Source: a bacterium (GTDB taxonomy: Bacteria; Bacillota_I; Bacilli_A; Acholeplasmatales; Anaeroplasmataceae). Taken from it: 42,203 nt of DNA. Shown here piece by piece: positions 124 through 25,087 of the stretch (within the stretch, counting starts at the first letter, position 1; each line of letters starts with the position of its first letter). Where the stretch lies: NCBI GenBank assembly GCA_963588755.1, contig CAVAIM010000001.1:1-42203 (forward strand), in the 5' to 3' direction. Made by a program: the position numbers and the translations under genes. A model generated the notes under the pieces. The model made no database searches. It saw only the letters and a program-made list of their open reading frames with translations, and was not told where the DNA came from.

Positions 124-603
124 ATGACTCTTGGAGAAAGAATACAAGATTTACGAAAGAAAAAAGGATATAGTCAAGAAAAACTAGCTGATCATTTAAA
201 TATGTCACGACAAGCTGTTGCTAAATGGGAACAAGATGCTTGTGAACCTAATATTGGTTGCTTGATTTCTATGTCTGAATTGTTTGAAGTTGATTTAGAT
301 TATTTAATTGCTGGAAAGATTAAGGAAAAAACTAGTGAAAAAATAATAGTAAAAGAGAAAGAACACTTGTTAGATAAAATTGATATTATTCTTTTATTGG
401 TTCTTATTATTTCAATTATTTTTTTCTTTGGATTATTCATATATGCCGTATTAAATCCGATGTATTACCATCAAGCATATTCTTTTATATGGTGGTATAT
501 TTACTTTTGGGTATCTTCAGGAACTTTATTTCGTTTTATGGTTCTTATTTCAGTTTTTGGTATAGTTTTCTCACTTTATAATTTTTTAAAAAGGAGAAAA
601 TAG
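124..603 (+). CDS. XRE-family helix-turn-helix transcriptional regulator with C-terminal transmembrane region
   Basis: N-terminus LGERIQDLRKKKGYSQEKLADHLNMSRQAVAKWE is a classic Cro/C1-type HTH. The C-terminal ~70 aa are strongly hydrophobic (IILLLVLIISIIFFFGLFIYAVL; FMVLISVFGIVFSLY), consistent with 2-3 TM helices. Confidence 0.85.
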   Translation: MTLGERIQDLRKKKGYSQEKLADHLNMSRQAVAKWEQDACEPNIGCLISMSELFEVDLDYLIAGKIKEKTSEKIIVKEKEHLLDKIDIILLLVLIISIIFFFGLFIYAVLNPMYYHQAYSFIWWYIYFWVSSGTLFRFMVLISVFGIVFSLYNFLKRRK

Positions 604-606
604 GAT

Positions 607-681
607 ATGATATTTAAAGTATGTTTATTGATTACAACACTCTTAAGTGCAGGAATTACTTCAGCAACGACTATATGTTAA
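607..681 (+). CDS. hypothetical 24-aa hydrophobic micropeptide (MIFKVCLLITTLLSAGITSATTIC)
   Basis: ATG at 607 lies 10 nt after AGGAG (592-596), and the stop TAA is at 679-681. It sits 3 nt after the regulator stop and before the terminator at 694-744. It is not in the ORF track (too short) and has no homology support. Confidence 0.3.
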   Translation: MIFKVCLLITTLLSAGITSATTIC

Positions 682-693
682 GGATAAAATGAT

Positions 694-744
694 ATGAACA
701 ATTTGGATGCAGTTAAAATGTACAATAATTGTTCATGTTTTTTT
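694..744 (+). terminator. rho-independent terminator (10-bp perfect stem, long loop, T-run)
   Basis: ATGAACAATT (694-703) pairs perfectly with AATTGTTCAT (727-736). A G plus a T7 run (738-744) follows. Confidence 0.6.
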
Positions 745-771
745 ATTTATTATATAATTTGATAAATCCAT

Positions 772-800
772 TTGAAATAGAGTGTAACACGTGTTACAAT
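772..800 (+). promoter_or_regulatory. sigma-A promoter (TTGAAA-17 nt-TACAAT) with embedded perfect 16-bp palindromic operator
   Basis: -35 TTGAAA at 772-777 and -10 TACAAT at 795-800. The palindrome TGTAACACGTGTTACA at 783-798 spans the spacer and the -10. An extra half-site ATGTTACA at 814-821 overlaps the start codon. Confidence 0.55.
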
Positions 801-820
801 TTGATTAAGGGTGATGTTAC

Positions 821-1678
821 ATGTTTTATGATTTAAATAAAGATATTAGATATACGAAAACTGTGTTAAATATGAATGATACTTCTATTTCAGAATTTTT
901 TGGTGTTTCAAGGATGACTTTGTCAAGATGGCAAAATGGAACGTCTCGCCCAAATATTGATACATTAAATAAAATATATAATACAATTTATAAGTCGGGT
1001 ATTAATTTGAATAGAATTAAAGAAGAAATGCATATGTCTAGTATGAAAGATAATCACGTGTTATTATTTCATGGCGCAAAGACAGAAATCAGTGGAGAAC
1101 CTAGTATAGAATATAGTAACGGAAAGAAAGATTTTGGTAAGGGATTTTATCTTGGCGAATCTTTTAATCAAGCTGCAAGCTTTGTCGTTGGATATGAAAA
1201 TTCTTCAGTATATCTATTTGATTTTGATAAATCTAATGTGAGTATCAAGGAATACAATGTATCAAAAGAATGGATGATATTAATTGCTTATTTCAGAGGT
1301 AAACTTGATAGATATAAGGATTCTAAATATCTTAATGAACTATTAGATACCTTAAAGAATGTTGATGTAGTAATTGCACCTATCGCAGATAATACAATGT
1401 ACACTACATTAGATGATTTTATTGAAGGAAAGATAACTGATTTACAATGTTTGAATGCCCTGTCTGCTAATAGACTTGGAAGACAATATGTATTTTTAAA
1501 TGATTCAATTATTAAAAACAATTTAAAAATGATTGAAAGATGTTTTTATTCTGCTTTAGAGAAAAAAGATTATTTAGAATATAGATATAAAGAAAACGAA
1601 ATTGGTAAGAATAAAGTAATACTTGCATTAAGAGAATATGCAGGTAAAGGAAGTTATATTGAGGAATTGTTAAAATGA
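821..1678 (+). CDS. fusion protein: N-terminal XRE-like HTH plus DUF3990-like domain
   Basis: The HTH-like segment is SISEFFGVSRMTLSRWQNGTSRPN. Downstream landmarks LLFHGA, DFGKGFYLGESFNQA, IAPIADN and RQYVF match my recollection of the DUF3990 family. The gene overlaps the next gene by ATGA. Confidence 0.8.
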   Translation: MFYDLNKDIRYTKTVLNMNDTSISEFFGVSRMTLSRWQNGTSRPNIDTLNKIYNTIYKSGINLNRIKEEMHMSSMKDNHVLLFHGAKTEISGEPSIEYSNGKKDFGKGFYLGESFNQAASFVVGYENSSVYLFDFDKSNVSIKEYNVSKEWMILIAYFRGKLDRYKDSKYLNELLDTLKNVDVVIAPIADNTMYTTLDDFIEGKITDLQCLNALSANRLGRQYVFLNDSIIKNNLKMIERCFYSALEKKDYLEYRYKENEIGKNKVILALREYAGKGSYIEELLK

Positions 1679-2133
1679 AGGATACTGATTTAATTAAGTG
1701 TAGATTTGTATCAAACTTGTTTGAATATGCAAGTAAGGTTAAAGAGGGATCATCTAAGATATTTATTAAAGCTTTTGTTTATTCAGCAATATCAAATCGT
1801 ATATCAAATGACGCATTTTTAATAGATTCATTTGATGTTAGTTATGCATATGAATCTATTAAGAAAGAGAAAGTGTTGAATAAAGGATGTGAAACATATC
1901 CTACATATATAATGTCATGGATTGGATATATTATGGAGTATTTCACACTAAATACAGGTATATCTTTAAAAATATTGTATAAGCATGTAAAACCAGAAGA
2001 ATTATATATGTTATATGAGTCATATCATTCATTAGATAATGATGAAGTTGTGAATAGATTATTAGAGGCTCATAATATAAATAGAAATTTAAATGATGTA
2101 GACTTAATGAAAAAAATATATAAAACTCAATAG
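1675..2133 (+). CDS. DUF3791-like protein (usual partner of DUF3990)
   Basis: There is a 4-nt overlap with the upstream gene. The C-terminal EELYMLYESYHSLDNDEVVNRLLE resembles the DUF3791 signature. The assignment comes from memory of the family and its genomic pairing. Confidence 0.6.
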   Translation: MKDTDLIKCRFVSNLFEYASKVKEGSSKIFIKAFVYSAISNRISNDAFLIDSFDVSYAYESIKKEKVLNKGCETYPTYIMSWIGYIMEYFTLNTGISLKILYKHVKPEELYMLYESYHSLDNDEVVNRLLEAHNINRNLNDVDLMKKIYKTQ

Positions 2134-6400: not shown

Positions 6401-7321
6401 TTAATATTTTATTTTGAAATAGTCGAGATAACTTTTCATTATATCTTGTGCAAATAAACAGGTATCTATTAAATATCCCTTTTCGGTGTTCCATTCTTTT
6501 AGACCTCTATAATAGAATGCTTTATATTGATCGGTGATTAAAATCGGAACAATATTATGTTTTAAACACTCCTTAAGCATAATTAGTCTTCCCACTCTAC
6601 CATTTCCATCTTGGAAAGGATGGATTGTTTCAAAACGATAATGAAATTCTATTATATTTTCTAAAGATACATTTTGAATATTATTGTACCAATTAAGTAA
6701 ATCAATTATTTTTGATTTAACTTCGCCGGGCTTTGCGGTTTCTTTGCCCCCAACTTCATTATCTATCATCTTATAATCTCCAACCTTAAACCAAGTCTTT
6801 AAAGAATCAGTGGTTCCGGATTTTAAAATAAAATGAAATTGTTTTATTAATGATTCACTTAATTTTGAATTTGCTGAATCAATGGCTAAATCTATACATC
6901 TAAAATGATTTATTGTTTCGATAATATCATCGACTTTAATGGACTCTTTTTCAATACCTATAGTTTTAGTTTCAAATATATATCTTGTTTGGTCGTATGT
7001 AAGTGTACTTCCTTCAATGTGGTTAGAGTTATAAGTCATATCAACTTGTAACTTATGATAAATACCACCCTTTAAAGACAAACCTTTTTCCCTCTTAAGA
7101 GTTTCAAGTAAAGTAACTTCCTTTACAGAATGACGTGTTTGTCTTTCTGGTTTTTCAGCATTATCAGGAATTAACCATGATTTTTTATCTAGAATTGCAC
7201 CGGGAACCCTACCCTTATTACAATAATCCCTAACGCTTCTTTCTGATATATTCCATTTCTTTGAAACTTCTGATACATTTAAATATTTCAATATATCACC
7301 TACTTTATTATATATTATCAT
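6401..7321 (-). CDS. Fic-family protein (putative AMPylase) with N-terminal HTH and intramolecular inhibitory motif
   Basis: The Fic motif HPFQDGNGRVGR is at 6587-6622 and the inhibitory-helix motif SNHIEG ([ST]xxxE[GN]) at 7010-7027. The N-terminal LNVSEVSKKWNISERSVRDYCNKGRVPGA is HTH-like. The start is uncertain: ATG 7321 has no SD, whereas TTG at 7291 has AGGTGAT (7301-7295) at ideal spacing. Confidence 0.85.
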   Translation of the reverse strand: MIIYNKVGDILKYLNVSEVSKKWNISERSVRDYCNKGRVPGAILDKKSWLIPDNAEKPERQTRHSVKEVTLLETLKREKGLSLKGGIYHKLQVDMTYNSNHIEGSTLTYDQTRYIFETKTIGIEKESIKVDDIIETINHFRCIDLAIDSANSKLSESLIKQFHFILKSGTTDSLKTWFKVGDYKMIDNEVGGKETAKPGEVKSKIIDLLNWYNNIQNVSLENIIEFHYRFETIHPFQDGNGRVGRLIMLKECLKHNIVPILITDQYKAFYYRGLKEWNTEKGYLIDTCLFAQDIMKSYLDYFKIKY

Positions 7322-9604: not shown

Positions 9605-10438
9605 ATGGCAATTAAAGTTTATAAACCAACTTCAAATGGTCACAGAAACATGTCAGTTTCTACATTCGAAGAAATTACAACAAGCACTCCTGAAAAATCA
9701 TTACTTGCTCCAATTAAGAGTAAGGGTGGAAGAAATAATACTGGTCTTGTAACTGTTCGTCACCAAGGTGGTGGAGTTAAGAGAAAATACAGAATTATTG
9801 ATTTCAAGAGAAATAAGGACAATGTTCCTGGTAAGGTTGCTACTATTGAGTACGATCCAAACAGAACATCAAACATCGCATTAATCGTTTATGCTGATGG
9901 TGAAAAGAGATATATCATTGCTCCATCAGGATTAACAGTTGGTATGACAGTTATCTCTGGTGAAACTGTTGACGTTAAGGTAGGTAATGCTTGCCCAATC
10001 ATCAACATCCCAGTTGGTACAGTTATTCACAACATCGAATTACACCCTGGTAAAGGTGGACAACTTGCTCGTTCAGCTGGTTCATCTGCTCAAATTCTAG
10101 GTCGTGATGAACGTTACGTTCTAGTACGTTTAACTAGTGGTGAAGTTCGTAAGGTTCTAGGTACTTGCCGTGCTACAATCGGTACAGTAGGTAATGAAGA
10201 TCATAGCTTAGTTCGTATCGGTAAAGCTGGTCGTGCTAGACATATGGGATTACGTCCTGAAGTTCGTGGTTCTGTAATGAACCCAGTTGATCACCCACAC
10301 GGAGGTGGAGAAGGTAAAGCTCCAATCGGACACAAGGCTCCAATGACTCCATGGGGTAAGAAGGCTCTAGGTGTTAAGACACGTAGAAATAAGAAGTCTT
10401 CTACAAAATTAATCGTTCGTAGAAGAAACGAAAAGTAA
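9605..10438 (+). CDS. rplB: 50S ribosomal protein L2
   Basis: [22 protein letters not shown] and [13 protein letters not shown] motifs. Confidence 0.97.
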
Positions 10439-21144: not shown

Positions 21145-21504
21145 ATGGCATATTCTAAATTACGTCGTTGCGGTGCAGCTCGTAAAGCATTAATCCGTGA
21201 CTTAGTTACCGATTTAATCCTTAATGGATCAATTGAAACAACTGAAGCTAAAGCAAAAGAATTAAGAAAGTTAGCTGACAAGATGGTTACTCTAGCTAAG
21301 ACTAATACTCTAGCTAGCCGTCGTGAAGCTGCTAAGTTAGTTCGTTTTGAAAAGGATGACCAAGGTCAATACGCTATTCAAAAGTTATTTAGCGAAATTG
21401 GTCCAAAGTTTGCTGATAGAAATGGTGGATACACTAGAATCATTAAGACTAGTTTCCGTCGTGGAGATGCAGCACCTAAGGCTATCATTTCATTCGTTGA
21501 CTAA
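21145..21504 (+). CDS. rplQ: 50S ribosomal protein L17
   Basis: [20 protein letters not shown]...GGYTRIIK. Confidence 0.97.
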
Positions 21505-21520
21505 TTAAATGGTAATATAT

Positions 21521-21551
21521 AAAGAGGCATTTTATGGTGCCTCTTTTTTTG
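21521..21551 (+). terminator. rho-independent terminator of the alpha operon
   Basis: AAAGAGGCA (21521-21529) pairs with TGCCTCTTT (21538-21546), followed by a T-run. Confidence 0.8.
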
Positions 21552-21580
21552 TTGCTTCAAATCGTTTGATATATTATAAT
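21552..21580 (+). promoter_or_regulatory. sigma-A promoter of the inserted three-gene cassette (TTGCTT-17 nt-TATAAT)
   Basis: -35 TTGCTT at 21552-21557 and -10 TATAAT at 21575-21580. SD AAAGGAG precedes ATG 21616. Confidence 0.55.
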
Positions 21581-21615
21581 GAAATTAGGAAGTTAGATTA
21601 CAAAGGAGAAAGTTT

Positions 21616-22833
21616 ATGAGTTCAATAACTACAAAAAAGTATAAAATAGTATTGTTTCAAAGTGGTTTAGCTGAACCTAAAGGTGCATTAACTAAAATGA
21701 TTAACTTAATAAGTGAGGCTAGTAAGAATTTTTTGAAGTATCCAACAATTGTTGATATGTCGCATTTTAATCCTCAAGAAAATTGTTTTTATAGAAAAGA
21801 TAGTGGTTATTATGGTAAATCAACGAAAGCTTTAAATGAATTCAAATTGCTCATAGCCGATATTGTTTCATATGCTAAACAAAATGCTGGTAAAACAATA
21901 CTTGTAGAAACCTATTTAAATAGAGGATTTAATTTAGAGCATAACGTAGACTCTATAGATAATCAAAAGATAAAACTAGAATTTATTGTTGATGAGATTA
22001 AGAAATACCCTGGAGTCTATTTGAGTTTAGTTGGTCATAGTCAAGGTGGATTAGTCAATCTTGAGACAGCAATTGAACGCAATTTTAAAATTAATCAATT
22101 GGTTTCTATATCCACTCCATATTCACCTGTATACTTAGGTAAAAAACTAATATTTTTAGATTTTTTCTTTAAAATTGGTGGACAATCTGCATATGATATG
22201 TTTGTAGAAAAAGAGTATGTTTCATATTATAAATCTTGTGTTGAACAACTTTGCTCAAAAGATTATTACGACACCCTTAAAAATAAATGGAATAATTTAT
22301 CATTAAGACCTAAATTTACTGTTATAACAGGAACTGCAGGTCATCTTTATAATTATTCTCCAGGAATTAGTACACCTTTAGTTTATAATCCTGATACTAT
22401 CACTAAAGAGTCTTTTGATGGCTTAGTAAGGTTCTATGAACAGGCTAATATTGAACATGCTGATTTTATCCATTTAACAGACAAGAATTTATCATGCTAT
22501 TCCGAACAAAAATATGCTCAGTTAAGATGTTATTATCAAAACGGATTTATATTAACGTGTAAGAAAAAATGTTCTTTAAGTTCAGTTAGTGTTGGTAGTA
22601 CTATAATTGATGCTTTATTTGATGTTATAGATCAAGTATTAAAAGGTACAAACATAAATGAACTTGCGGAATTAAAAGTGGTTCAAGCAATTCATGCTGG
22701 ATTAAAAAGAAATAAAGATGCTTTACCTTCAGGATATGATGAATATTATAATATTTATGCAAATGATTATAATCATAACTATATAAGATATAATAAAGAA
22801 ACTATTGCATATTTATTAGCTTTACTAAATTAA
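21616..22833 (+). CDS. alpha/beta-hydrolase fold protein, lipase/esterase-like, with helical C-terminal region
   Basis: The nucleophile elbow is LVGHSQGG (Ser142, codon 22039-22041). A candidate acid is in FDGLV (Asp268) and candidate His residues are H281/H286. There is no signal peptide, and the last ~90 aa look helical. Confidence 0.7.
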   Translation: MSSITTKKYKIVLFQSGLAEPKGALTKMINLISEASKNFLKYPTIVDMSHFNPQENCFYRKDSGYYGKSTKALNEFKLLIADIVSYAKQNAGKTILVETYLNRGFNLEHNVDSIDNQKIKLEFIVDEIKKYPGVYLSLVGHSQGGLVNLETAIERNFKINQLVSISTPYSPVYLGKKLIFLDFFFKIGGQSAYDMFVEKEYVSYYKSCVEQLCSKDYYDTLKNKWNNLSLRPKFTVITGTAGHLYNYSPGISTPLVYNPDTITKESFDGLVRFYEQANIEHADFIHLTDKNLSCYSEQKYAQLRCYYQNGFILTCKKKCSLSSVSVGSTIIDALFDVIDQVLKGTNINELAELKVVQAIHAGLKRNKDALPSGYDEYYNIYANDYNHNYIRYNKETIAYLLALLN

Positions 22834-22848
22834 GTGCTTAGGTATTAT

Positions 22849-23307
22849 ATGAGAAAAATATGCTATTTCTTTTCATGCATTTGTTTTTTGTTGATTCTTT
22901 GTGGATGTCGAGAACCAAATTTAAGTAATTATCATTACGTAGGTGAAAAATGGACAGAAATTGTTGATGATACTATTTATACGATTGATTATTATAAAGA
23001 AGAAGATGATTGGGCTTATTTAACTATTACACGAGATACAGAACTTCTCATTGATGGAGAAGTAATCGATAAAATATATATGAAAGCGGGAGGGCTTTAC
23101 ACTATTGATAAAGTGCTTGCTGATAATACGAAACCGGAGTCTTCTTTTTATTTTTTAGTTTTTCCAATGCAATATTATGTAATTGGACATGATAATGTTG
23201 CAAACATATCTTTACATGCTAAAGATGAGTTCCACGGATATGTCAAAATCTCAATTGAAAGTAGTAAAATCGAACCACAGGATTTATTTTCTATGGTATT
23301 ATATTAA
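22849..23307 (+). CDS. small putative lipoprotein, function unknown
   Basis: MRKICYFFSCICFLLILCGC is a signal peptide with a lipobox-like LCGC. ATG 22849 is preferred over the track GTG 22834, which abuts the upstream stop. Confidence 0.6.
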   Translation: MRKICYFFSCICFLLILCGCREPNLSNYHYVGEKWTEIVDDTIYTIDYYKEEDDWAYLTITRDTELLIDGEVIDKIYMKAGGLYTIDKVLADNTKPESSFYFLVFPMQYYVIGHDNVANISLHAKDEFHGYVKISIESSKIEPQDLFSMVLY

Positions 23308-23336
23308 GATTATTGTAATAAAGGATATTAAAAAAT

Positions 23337-24152
23337 ATGGTTAATAGAAGAACTACTGAATACGAATATAAAATGATATCATCATTTTATGACAATTATT
23401 TGAAGCTACATAATTATTTAAATATTAAAAGAATAGTTTTAGGTATATGTTTTTCTACTAATGAAGAGAATAAAATGATCAAACAATTCCATGAGTTCTT
23501 ATTATGCATGACAATTACTTCAAAAGAAAATATTTTAAATAATCTTAAAAGATGTTCTAAATTTTCACTAGATATAGAAATGAGTGAAGAAACTTGCAAC
23601 ATGCTTGAAAAAATAATTAATGAAGAAACGATGGATGATGTTCAAAAAAGTTTAAGATTATTAGAATGCTCTATGGTTGAAAAAGATGTTAGACAAGCTT
23701 ATATCTTATTTATCTTATCAGGAATGTATTTAAACTTTTATTATAAAGATTATGTTGTAATTCCTGTTTATATGTTTACTCAATTAGAAGCTATAGTTAA
23801 AGATTACGAGATTAGATATATATTTTATAAATCATTAATAGAACAAACATTAAAGTGCCATGATAATAATCTTAAAGAGAAAATTATAAAAGTATATGAA
23901 GAAAATAAAGATAATTTTATTTCCTTTGGTATAGATAAATTATTTCTGTTTGGCTCTATAATTGATGATACATATTATGAACATAGTGATATAGATATTG
24001 TTATTAAGATGAAAGAAAATGGGAATTATTATGAAGCTAGAAAATTGTTGATAGAGTTTAATAAGGAACATTTTTCAATGGATAGTGACATAATTGAAAG
24101 CGATGATTTTATTGCTTTAAATCCTTGCGTAAAAAAGTATAAAGTGTTCTAA
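23337..24152 (+). CDS. protein with unknown ~190-aa N-terminal domain fused to a C-terminal minimal nucleotidyltransferase (MNT/Pol-beta-type) domain
   Basis: LFLFGSIIDDTYYEHSDIDIVI fits the G[GS]-x10-DxD signature (23952-23996). A third acidic cluster, DSDII, lies about 30 aa later. I recognise no motif in the N-terminal part. Confidence 0.65.
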   Translation: MVNRRTTEYEYKMISSFYDNYLKLHNYLNIKRIVLGICFSTNEENKMIKQFHEFLLCMTITSKENILNNLKRCSKFSLDIEMSEETCNMLEKIINEETMDDVQKSLRLLECSMVEKDVRQAYILFILSGMYLNFYYKDYVVIPVYMFTQLEAIVKDYEIRYIFYKSLIEQTLKCHDNNLKEKIIKVYEENKDNFISFGIDKLFLFGSIIDDTYYEHSDIDIVIKMKENGNYYEARKLLIEFNKEHFSMDSDIIESDDFIALNPCVKKYKVF

Positions 24153-24188
24153 GCATTATGTTATTTGATTTAAACTAATAATTTTAAT

Positions 24189-24215
24189 AAGGCATTTATA
24201 ATAGTGCCTTTTTTG
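24189..24215 (+). terminator. rho-independent terminator closing the cassette
   Basis: AAGGCA (24189-24194) pairs with TGCCTT (24205-24210), followed by TTTT. Confidence 0.65.
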
Positions 24216-24247
24216 AATTGTCAAATGTTTTATTATCAAGTAAAATG

Positions 24248-24283: not shown

Positions 24284-25087
24284 GTGATAAAAGTAGAAAA
24301 TTTAGACTATAGTTATACACAAGAAGATCACGCATTAAAAGGTGTCTCATTTAATGTAAATGATGGCGAATGGCTATCTGTTATCGGACACAATGGTAGT
24401 GGAAAATCTACATTATCTAAATTACTTGTTGGACTTATGAAAGCTGATAAAGGTAAAATTATTTATGATGATGTTGAACTAAATGAAAAGACTGTCGATA
24501 AAGTTAGACAATCTATTGGTATTGTTTTCCAAAATCCAGATAATCAATTTGTTGGTGTGAATGTTAAATATGATATTGCTTTCGGACTTGAGAATAGACA
24601 AGTTGAAAGAGAAGAAATGTTAAGATTAATAGATGAATATTCAAAAAAAGTTGGTATGTATGAATATTTAGATAGACAACCAGAATCTCTTTCTGGAGGT
24701 CAAAAACAAAGAGTGGCCATTGCAGGTATATTAGCTCTTAATACTAAATACATTATTCTTGATGAAGCTACATCAATGTTAGACCCTGAAGGTGTAGAAG
24801 ATATTACTAATTTAATTAAAGAACTTAAAGATAAGTATCATAAAACTATTATTACAATAACTCATGATTTAGACCTTGCGAGTTTGTCTGATAGAGTAAT
24901 TGTAATGAAAGATGGAAATATCATAGGTGAAGGAACGCCTAAAGAAGTATTTGAAGATGAGAATATCTTACAAAGTTCTAATTTAGATATGCCATTTAAT
25001 TTAAAATTATATAAAGATGTTTTAAAGGATGAAAAGTTATCTAAAAACAAAAGGCTGGTGGATGCATTATGCAAATTAAATTTCTAA
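24284..25087 (+). CDS. ecfA1: energy-coupling factor transporter ATPase EcfA1
   Basis: Walker A GHNGSGKST, signature LSGGQKQR and Walker B ILDEATS. The start is GTG, with SD AAGGAG 11 nt upstream. Confidence 0.9.
   Translation: MIKVENLDYSYTQEDHALKGVSFNVNDGEWLSVIGHNGSGKSTLSKLLVGLMKADKGKIIYDDVELNEKTVDKVRQSIGIVFQNPDNQFVGVNVKYDIAFGLENRQVEREEMLRLIDEYSKKVGMYEYLDRQPESLSGGQKQRVAIAGILALNTKYIILDEATSMLDPEGVEDITNLIKELKDKYHKTIITITHDLDLASLSDRVIVMKDGNIIGEGTPKEVFEDENILQSSNLDMPFNLKLYKDVLKDEKLSKNKRLVDALCKLNF

Follow-up and report, generated by a model that had tools for sequence, protein, structure and literature searches.

What are the three genes that separate rplQ from ecfA1 in the genome of a bacterium of the family Anaeroplasmataceae, and what could they do together? 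The locus belongs to a stretch of 42,203 nucleotides (assembly GCA_963588755.1, contig CAVAIM010000001.1), which was analysed as a whole and is called the window below. The three genes, designated A, B and C, encode respectively a lipase-like alpha/beta hydrolase, a small lipoprotein, and a protein composed of a helical domain and an MntA-like nucleotidyltransferase domain. A preliminary description of the window had recognised these genes as a self-contained cassette and had compared them with effector/immunity or nucleotide-signalling defence modules. The comparison with related loci and with homologues shows that the cassette is mobile, that its three genes are functionally linked and that it occupies a variable slot. 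It is probably a small conflict operon in which a regulator fold and an effector class that are both familiar are associated with an unfamiliar third partner.

The cassette and its insertion site

The cassette is bounded on the left by rplQ, encoding the ribosomal protein L17 (positions 21145-21504), and on the right by ecfA1 (24284-25087), which is followed by ecfA2, ecfT and truA. Both boundary genes were identified from their open reading frames (ORFs) and from Pfam matches, the family Ribosomal_L17 being detected on an identical protein. Between them, and on the same + strand, are found gene A (21616-22833, 405 amino acids), gene B (22849-23307, 152 amino acids, with an ATG start) and gene C (23337-24152, 271 amino acids). 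The ORF coordinates and the intergenic gaps, of 15 nt between A and B and of 29 nt between B and C, agree with the tight packing described initially. The gene calls of an identical locus comprise Ribosomal_L17, the trio, two ABC_tran proteins and CbiQ (EcfT).

The absence of mobility genes was also confirmed, since no integrase, transposase or recombinase was found in or beside the cassette among the window ORFs and their Pfam matches. An Rfam scan revealed no RNA element inside the cassette, the sole match in the window being the S10 leader RF03136 (7528-7627). The GC and GC3 contents of the cassette are typical of the genome, with GC3 z-values of -0.9 (A), +1.5 (B) and +0.7 (C) relative to the non-ribosomal genes of the window; a deviation in composition, proposed earlier as a check, was therefore not found. 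The cassette had also been credited with its own promoter. The sequence TTGCTT-17-TATAAT is indeed read upstream of A (21552-21580, + strand) and its -10 element is perfect, but its -35 element agrees with TTGACA at 3 of 6 positions, and promoter-like motifs occur in this AT-rich stretch at chance level (62 versus 63.9 +/- 9.5 expected from shuffled sequence). Because the motif frequency equals that of shuffled sequence, this candidate promoter is plausible from its position alone.

The junction was surveyed by a metagenome scan with RplQ, which yielded 80 related rplQ loci, and each of them was searched with A, B and C using tblastn. None of the three genes was detected by this search in any of the 80 loci. 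The direct succession of rplQ and ecfA, which had been postulated as the expected synteny, is observed in about 30 more distant loci from Firmicutes, where ecfA1 starts approximately 65-220 nt past rplQ. In the closest relative (locus L024, RplQ 91% and EcfA1 82% identical), the gap between rplQ and ecfA1 (L024:5361-6341) measures 980 bp and contains other cargo, a single unrelated gene encoding a 172-aa lipoprotein. The corresponding gap is occupied by a MATE transporter in L035-37, by a transmembrane protein and an M50-like protease in L031, by a 150-aa membrane protein in L042, and by a HipA-like kinase with its helix-turn-helix (HTH) partner, together with pepF, Hsp20 and thioredoxin, in L040. 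Three loci (L025, L026 and L029) have no ecfA downstream of rplQ. The cassette is thus interposed at a conserved junction, and the cargo held by this slot varies within the lineage. The rplQ-ecfA boundary, usually taken as rigid synteny, is in this lineage a place where accessory genes have landed repeatedly, which had not been remarked before.

Contigs with an RplQ identical to that of the window were obtained from one NCBI metagenome-assembled genome (MAG) and from six sequencing runs. Every same-species contig reaching past rplQ carries the cassette at the rplQ-ecfA junction, which indicates that the cassette is fixed in the species. Considered as a genomic island, the cassette displays a presence/absence polymorphism (80 loci) and flanking direct repeats (about 70 nt), and it has neither an integrase or recombinase of its own nor a compositional deviation.

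Terminators and direct repeat at the borders

The terminator hairpins detected on the + strand in a scan of the region 19-29 kb are located at 21521-21546 and 24189-24210, and they bracket the cassette precisely. The first is the rplQ terminator, whose location is conserved in L024, the closest relative. A resemblance between the two terminators had suggested a duplication or an insertion next to the rplQ terminator. This idea is strengthened, since the similarity reaches far past the hairpins and defines an imperfect direct repeat of about 70 nt. The left copy (21505-21574, + strand) holds the rplQ terminator hairpin and the -35-like TTGCTT, and the right copy (24170-24236, + strand) holds the cassette terminator and overlaps the -35 element of a promoter-like site of ecfA1 (24218-24246). 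The two copies are identical at 54 of 64 aligned positions. The score of their local alignment is 36, versus 19-21 +/- 3 in shuffled sequences; it was equalled in none of 1000 and none of 2000 shuffles, in one of 500 when 200-nt flanks were used, and in none of 2930 random windows.

The right copy is moreover similar to the stretch that comes after gene C, on the 3' side of the cassette, at locus L001, which is another genomic context (z = 5.1); it therefore seems to travel with the cassette. Taken together, the two copies have the appearance of a decayed footprint, left by an insertion or recombination event at the rplQ terminator. No flanking repeats were detected around the cassette at seven other loci. 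In L024, a 20/21-nt match was noticed between L024:5571-5592, before the start of the lipoprotein gene, and L024:6140-6160, after its stop; it is reminiscent of the repeat flanking the cassette in the window and is not significant (164 of 1000 shuffles).

Recurrence of the three genes as a unit

The genomic contexts of A or C homologues with 28-61% identity were read. Wherever enough sequence is available, the trio is complete, its B protein being membrane-anchored; it recurs in about 12 independent and unrelated contexts, which answers positively the question of co-occurrence raised in the preliminary description. In GCA_963653735.1, the genome with the cassette most similar to that of the window, the insertion site is another one. 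Ten contexts have full coverage (the window, L001, L003, L004/L011, L006, L007, L010, L105, L107 and L111), and the truncated loci L012, L104 and L106 are consistent with the linkage of the trio. The gene orders observed are A-B-C, A-B-A-B-C, A-B-B-C, A-B-C-B, B-C-A and A-C-B. That the three genes stay linked although their order is permuted argues strongly for functional coupling.

The order A-B-C of the window is shared by five other groups of loci. The trio is found after an SNF2 helicase, a MoxR-type AAA ATPase and a DUF2201 protein in L001/L002, between a Lamassu system upstream and a holin and RHS region downstream in L004/L005/L011, between a peptidase M20 gene and a paralogue of EF-G in L007-L009, within a prophage in L010, and in L107-L110, where PDC-S06 adjoins it in L107. 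In L003, the order A-B-A-B-C comes after polC. The order is A-B-B-C in L111-L113, after NUDIX and TM1506 genes and before an EF-G paralogue, and A-B-C-B in L105, beside an HTH_3 gene. In L006, which adjoins ffh, the order B-C-A is followed by a B-like lipoprotein with an Endonuclea_NS_2 motif. The order A-C-B is found in L104, a contig of 1.5 kb, and in L106, near PDC-S27 and PDC-S04/SoFic. Finally, L012 displays B-A, preceded by an HTH protein and a fragment of a transposase, and its contig is then truncated. The hosts are uncultured gut Bacilli, represented by MAGs of Erysipelotrichaceae, Anaeroplasmataceae and 'Bacilli bacterium' type. Defence and competition systems are almost unstudied in such gut Bacilli and Mollicutes-like lineages.

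Conserved features of the three proteins

The protein types proposed at the outset were retrieved for the three genes. In the window, A gives weak Pfam matches to PGAP1, DUF676 and Palm_thioest. In an alignment of 34 sequences of the A family, PGAP1 is matched by all 34 members, Palm_thioest and Abhydrolase by most of them, DUF676 by 16 and, weakly, the phospholipase domain Tle3 of type VI secretion by nine. A profile search against PDB recovered family-I lipases and esterases of Burkholderia and Pseudomonas, which match in the elbow region only. The catalytic triad, composed of Ser142 (in the elbow GHSQGG), Asp268 and His387, is invariant in the 34 sequences. As His387 sits 18 residues before the C-terminus, the hydrolase fold spans the whole protein. 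Four conserved cysteines (Cys294, Cys305, Cys316 and Cys320) form the motif C-x10-C-x10-C-x3-C in the insert between the Asp and the His. The family also begins with an invariant Met-Ser-Ser, encoded by codons that differ between loci; this tripeptide may serve for modification or recognition. Neither a signal peptide nor a transmembrane segment is predicted in the sequence of A, which is apparently an active, cytoplasmic hydrolase of the lipase type. The A family comprises 71 clusters at 90% identity among 5.8 billion proteins, all annotated as hypothetical and all from uncultured Bacilli, Erysipelotrichaceae or Anaeroplasmataceae. When genome contigs were scanned with A, the pattern GHSQGG dominated the matches and only two true loci were obtained.

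The nucleotidyltransferase domain of C extends approximately from residue 180 to residue 260, with Polbeta and NTP_transf_2 Pfam matches at 181-258. In 44 sequences, the active-site residues Gly206, Ser207, Asp218 and Asp220 are invariant, and Asp251 is nearly so. A first AlphaFold2 model, based on seven sequences, had a predicted local distance difference test (pLDDT) of 66; it is superseded by the model from the alignment of the 44 sequences (pLDDT 94, predicted template modelling score 0.84). Using Foldseek against PDB and BFVD, only the minimal nucleotidyltransferase (MNT) domain finds matches, led by MntA antitoxins and HI0073; the antibiotic nucleotidyltransferases ANT(4'), AadA and AAD(9) are weaker structural matches. 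The best match in a sequence profile search of PDB is the MntA protein SO_3166 (2.9e-7), and C scores 20.7 bits with the NCBIfam model MntA_antitoxin, under its curated cut-off of 60 bits. The PADLOC candidate PDC-S09 is matched by residues 180-258 only (4e-12 for the protein of the window and 5e-10 for that of L107). Weak profile matches were also obtained with HalB (E 0.006) and with the Pfam family NTase-conflict.

The N-terminal domain of C (approximately residues 1-175) is composed of nine helices in the AlphaFold2 model. Tyr27 is invariant in this domain, Ile14, Lys31 and Pro143 are nearly so, and Tyr9, Lys12 and Ile30 are conserved in the closer homologues. The domain has no Pfam match in the 44 homologues and no structural neighbour in PDB or BFVD (Foldseek), and so a helical domain that is modelled with confidence (pLDDT 94) has yet no relative in PDB, BFVD or Pfam. 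An assignment to HEPN was rejected, because the domain contains no Rx4-6H motif, has no invariant Arg or His, and gives no HEPN match with Pfam or Foldseek. A degenerate Fic/Fido fold was likewise dropped, the sole suggestive Foldseek match having an E-value of 0.34. The C family was delineated by an exhaustive HMMER search, and word-indexed searches with C alone or with an alignment of 11 sequences gave six or seven proteins. About 45 full-length representatives were found among 1.84 billion proteins, the other matches being stand-alone MNT proteins of about 100 aa. The families of both enzymes, A and C, are rare. C is apparently an active nucleotidyltransferase of the MntA type, linked to a helical domain without detectable relative.

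A lipoprotein signal peptide is present in B of the window, where the lipobox is L-C-G-C, and in the B proteins of most loci; a few have an uncleaved anchor instead. The sequence follows a beta-rich pattern. No match to B was found in Pfam, NCBIfam, PADLOC or PHROGs, nor in PDB, which was searched with a B profile. The identity between B proteins from different loci is of 15-35%, and the mean identities between loci are of 39% for A, 30% for C and 26% for B. The tandem duplication of L003 shows the same difference within one locus, where A and A2 are 67% identical and B and B2 only 36%. These features place B on the outer side of the membrane, as a surface-anchored protein, and show that its divergence is much more rapid than that of A. 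As B is duplicated together with A and diverges fast, A is likely its partner. A protein in lipoprotein form cannot carry a signal across the membrane, so that B would have to act extracellularly. Directly after A in L006, a gene encodes a 172-aa lipoprotein (L006:7224-7742) whose N-terminal part is B-like and which contains an Endonuclea_NS_2 motif (Pfam 8e-9). This protein may be a fusion derived from B with a nuclease fragment.

Neighbours of the trio at other loci

Defence genes recognised by PADLOC adjoin the trio at several loci. A complete Lamassu system is located upstream of the trio in L004 (LmuA 1e-70, LmuC 3e-46 and LmuB 8e-182), the PADLOC candidate PDC-S06 is adjacent in L107 (7e-173), the candidate PDC-S27 and a Fic protein resembling the candidate PDC-S04/SoFic are adjacent in L106, and a DrmD-like SNF2 helicase in L001. 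In the prophage L010, the trio is found among methyltransferases, between the genes of the small (terS) and large (terL/portal side) subunits of the terminase. A large accessory block separates the two terminase genes in this prophage. Before the trio, it contains several genes for DNA methyltransferases, HNH genes and one SAM-synthetase-like gene; after the trio come one Amidoligase_2 and one GGACT/AIG2-like gene (L010:8888-10336), then terL.

The region downstream of the trio in L004 (L004:8651-13239, equivalent to L011 from position 10236 onward) begins with genes for a 142-aa lipoprotein, an XhlA-like protein of 99 aa and a phage-type holin. Farther downstream, L004 encodes two 279-aa C-like nucleotidyltransferases, paralogues that have, as C does, a helical domain and an MNT domain, and then a protein of 2422 aa that resembles RHS/PT-HINT polymorphic toxins. 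One of these paralogues, C3, aligns to residues 31-261 of C with an hhalign probability of 97.5%. Directly upstream of A and on the same strand, a small gene of the sigma-70 family with a clear match to region 4 is present in L004 (5346-5816) and in L107 (4961-5551), and the upstream gene of L012 (6204-7010) encodes an HTH protein with a weak match to sigma region 4 (Pfam E 0.023). These sigma/HTH genes may be dedicated regulators of the trio. The cassette of the window has no holin or sigma gene.

Comparison with known systems

When screened with the models of PADLOC-DB v2, A and B match no model and C is detected only as the single-domain candidate PDC-S09, through its nucleotidyltransferase domain; no system of this database is matched by all the components of the trio. 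No description of a combination of lipase, lipoprotein and nucleotidyltransferase was found in the literature searched. These results bear out the statement that the cassette fits no named system. A mention of PGAP1 in the Domainator preprint turned out to be 'NCBI PGAP'. The models of PDC-S09 itself represent stand-alone MNT proteins of about 100 aa: the nucleotidyltransferase domain of C matches them, and A, B and the N-terminal domain of C are outside this candidate.

In type VII toxin-antitoxin systems (HepT/MntA), MntA AMPylates its toxin. The catalytic domain of C is a minimal nucleotidyltransferase with a G-S...D-x-D...D site (the GSx(n)DxD signature of MNT enzymes), and its best matches are MntA antitoxins and related structures (Foldseek 7bxo, 6m6u, 8xeo and 1no5, in addition to SO_3166). 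As in these systems, C shares a small operon with an enzyme that may be toxic, and its family type is common in defence islands. However, the candidate toxin here is a lipase-like hydrolase and not an RNase, the third gene encodes a lipoprotein, and the domains of C are ordered with the helical domain first and the MNT domain second. No HEPN RNase with Rx4-6H was found by Pfam or Foldseek in A, B, C or the 44 homologues of C. The trio is therefore most similar to type VII through its MNT enzyme, and it falls outside this type for want of a HEPN toxin.

Lipase effectors with an extracytoplasmic immunity protein, namely the Tle/Tli pairs of type VI secretion and the reverse-domain toxins TslA (with TilA) and TslM of type VII secretion, recall another part of the cassette. 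A is a GxSxG hydrolase encoded beside a small membrane-anchored or lipoprotein partner, and here too the effector-partner pair is duplicated in tandem and the partner evolves fast. Unlike these effectors, A has no association with a secretion system and no targeting domain, His387 being so close to the end of the 405 residues; in particular, the C-terminal LXG-like targeting domain that follows the lipase in TslA and TslM is missing from A. B is encoded beside A or C in every locus, and no homology to known immunity families, or to any other known family, was detected for it. In addition, a nucleotidyltransferase is an obligatory third part of the trio. No genes of a type VII secretion system were seen in the loci read, which are contig fragments of uncultured genomes. 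The hosts of the trio are Bacilli, Erysipelotrichaceae and Anaeroplasmataceae, no genes of a type VI secretion system were seen in the contexts read, and the trio is not of the Tle/Tli type, which is linked to that system (VgrG, PAAR or Hcp neighbourhood) in diderms.

CBASS, Hailong and Panoptes use a nucleotidyltransferase to control an effector that damages the membrane. The trio shares with CBASS (CapV phospholipase), Hailong (HalB/HalA) and Panoptes a nucleotidyltransferase of the Pol-beta superfamily and a would-be membrane-destroying effector, and it is likewise found beside other defence systems. In contrast, C is not a CD-NTase/SMODS protein and matches only Polbeta and NTP_transf_2, A has no SAVED, CARF or other known signal sensor, no transmembrane effector is encoded, and the PADLOC models of these systems give no match. 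Since it has no CD-NTase, the trio is not CBASS-like.

Possible function of the trio

We favour, tentatively and at somewhat less than an even chance, the view that the trio is a toxin-antitoxin-like conflict or defence (abortive-infection) module. In such a module, A would be the effector and would kill by hydrolysis of membrane lipids. By analogy with MntA, C would restrain A, or itself, in the cytoplasm by nucleotidylylation. Upon phage infection or stress, the control exerted by C would be lost and A would be unleashed, leading to abortive infection. B would be a surface-anchored binder, and its most economical role would be to neutralise A from outside, for instance A coming from lysed kin, which would explain both the duplication of the A-B pair and the fastest evolution of B. 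A more specific version, quite improbable as a whole, combines abortive infection with protection of bystanders: C would silence A by nucleotidylylation, its N-terminal domain would sense the infection, A would lyse the cell and B would shield the uninfected kin. If true, it would join toxin-antitoxin, defence and effector/immunity logic in one operon. The two halves of the initial suggestion thus fare differently. The neighbouring defence genes and the prophage at other loci favour an effector/immunity or defence module, but nucleotide signalling is the less likely half, because C is of the MntA type, i.e. the protein modifier of type VII systems, and not a signal synthase of the cGAS/CD-NTase type.

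Several observations weigh against such a toxin-antitoxin-like module. The cassette is not a recent acquisition, given its composition typical of the genome and its fixation in the species. A was not found in sequenced phages or plasmids, and IMG/VR contains no match to the A alignment, to the prophage copy of A or to C. Defence genes are neighbours of the trio in only 4-5 of about 12 contexts, a raw count without background rate. The analogy with MntA covers the catalytic domain only, because the N-terminal domain of C is not HEPN and has no fold relative. The lipoprotein B is unable to signal to cytoplasmic A or C; the role attributed to it would need A outside the cell, yet A has no recognisable export signal, and its four-cysteine motif suggests a cytoplasmic Zn site.

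The main alternative, which we consider unlikely, is that A is an interbacterial, bacteriocin-like lipase toxin and B its immunity lipoprotein. A would leave the cell with no classical signal, by export or by release (for instance through lysis or with the help of a holin), and its target would be the outer leaflet of the membranes of competing cells. B would shield the producer as well as its kin, and C would be an accessory, for instance a safety catch inside the cell or a maturation enzyme. A lipase of the GxSxG type and an extracytoplasmic lipoprotein, as a pair, correspond to the logic of Tle/Tli and TslA/TilA, nine members of the A family match Tle3, and A and B are duplicated as a pair in which B diverges much faster. 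The lipoprotein, XhlA-like protein, holin, two C-like nucleotidyltransferases and RHS/PT-HINT toxin-like protein downstream of the trio in L004/L011 are also consistent with it, as is the gene of the sigma-70 family upstream in L004 and L107 (weak match in L012), which recalls the TcdR/UviA-type control of clostridial toxins devoid of signal. However, A has no signal peptide and no LXG/WXG, PAAR, RHS or other trafficking domain, the 18 residues after His387 leave no space for a TslA-like targeting domain, and the four-cysteine motif fits a cytoplasmic Zn site. The holin and sigma genes are lacking in the window, and several of the neighbours elsewhere are anti-phage systems, not secretion systems. 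A lipase toxin with its immunity protein also gives no role to a nucleotidyltransferase that is strictly co-inherited and catalytically intact.

The catalytic domain of C also invites an explanation without conflict, in which the trio would be an accessory operon for envelope or lipid metabolism or for xenobiotic modification, with A as an esterase, B as a substrate-binding lipoprotein and C as a nucleotidyltransferase of small molecules, the whole being mobile because it is niche-adaptive. The MNT/KNTase fold includes aminoglycoside and lincosamide nucleotidyltransferases, and ANT(4'), AadA and AAD(9) are among the weaker structural matches of C. The typical composition and the fixation in the species agree with such an operon, as do the ordinary nature of the other cargo of the slot (MATE pump, membrane proteins) and the host-associated lineages with reduced genomes. 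We regard it nevertheless as rather improbable. The best matches of C, in structure and in sequence, are the protein-modifying MntA and not drug-modifying enzymes, whose C-terminal substrate-binding domain is absent from C; the evolution of B, near saturation, is unusual for a substrate-binding protein; and the trio recurs near defence genes and in a prophage, without any co-travelling transporter or regulator typical of catabolic operons. The composition and the presence of the cassette in all same-species contigs that reach past rplQ would also be expected if the three genes were chance neighbours, i.e. unrelated housekeeping or hypothetical genes in an arrangement ancestral at the junction. 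This is hardly credible: none of the 80 related loci carries the cassette, including that of the relative with an RplQ 91% identical, the trio is kept with permuted order in about 12 unrelated contexts, and a direct repeat flanks it in the window.

If the trio is a conflict system, it brings together a lipase-type effector, an MntA-type protein nucleotidyltransferase and a cognate surface lipoprotein, a combination absent from PADLOC-DB v2 and from the literature searched. If C restrains A as proposed, enzymatic neutralisation of the type VII kind would extend past HEPN RNases to toxins that target the membrane.

Other genes of the window and of related loci

A paralogue of EF-G adjoins the trio in two divergent loci (L007:9099-11150 and L111:6887-8929, both on the - strand), and an EF-G-like gene is found directly after rplQ in L025 (5461-7485) and L026. 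This proximity may be a coincidence or may reflect a shared neighbourhood. In the window, shortly before the S10 leader, a gene with a Fic domain is encoded on the other strand (6401-7321, - strand). The start of the window (124-2133, + strand) comprises an HTH_3 gene, a DUF3990 gene and an ORF of 152 aa without known family. The Fic, HTH_3, DUF3990 and 152-aa ORFs are candidates for additional genes of accessory or toxin-antitoxin-like nature in the vicinity of the ribosomal cluster.

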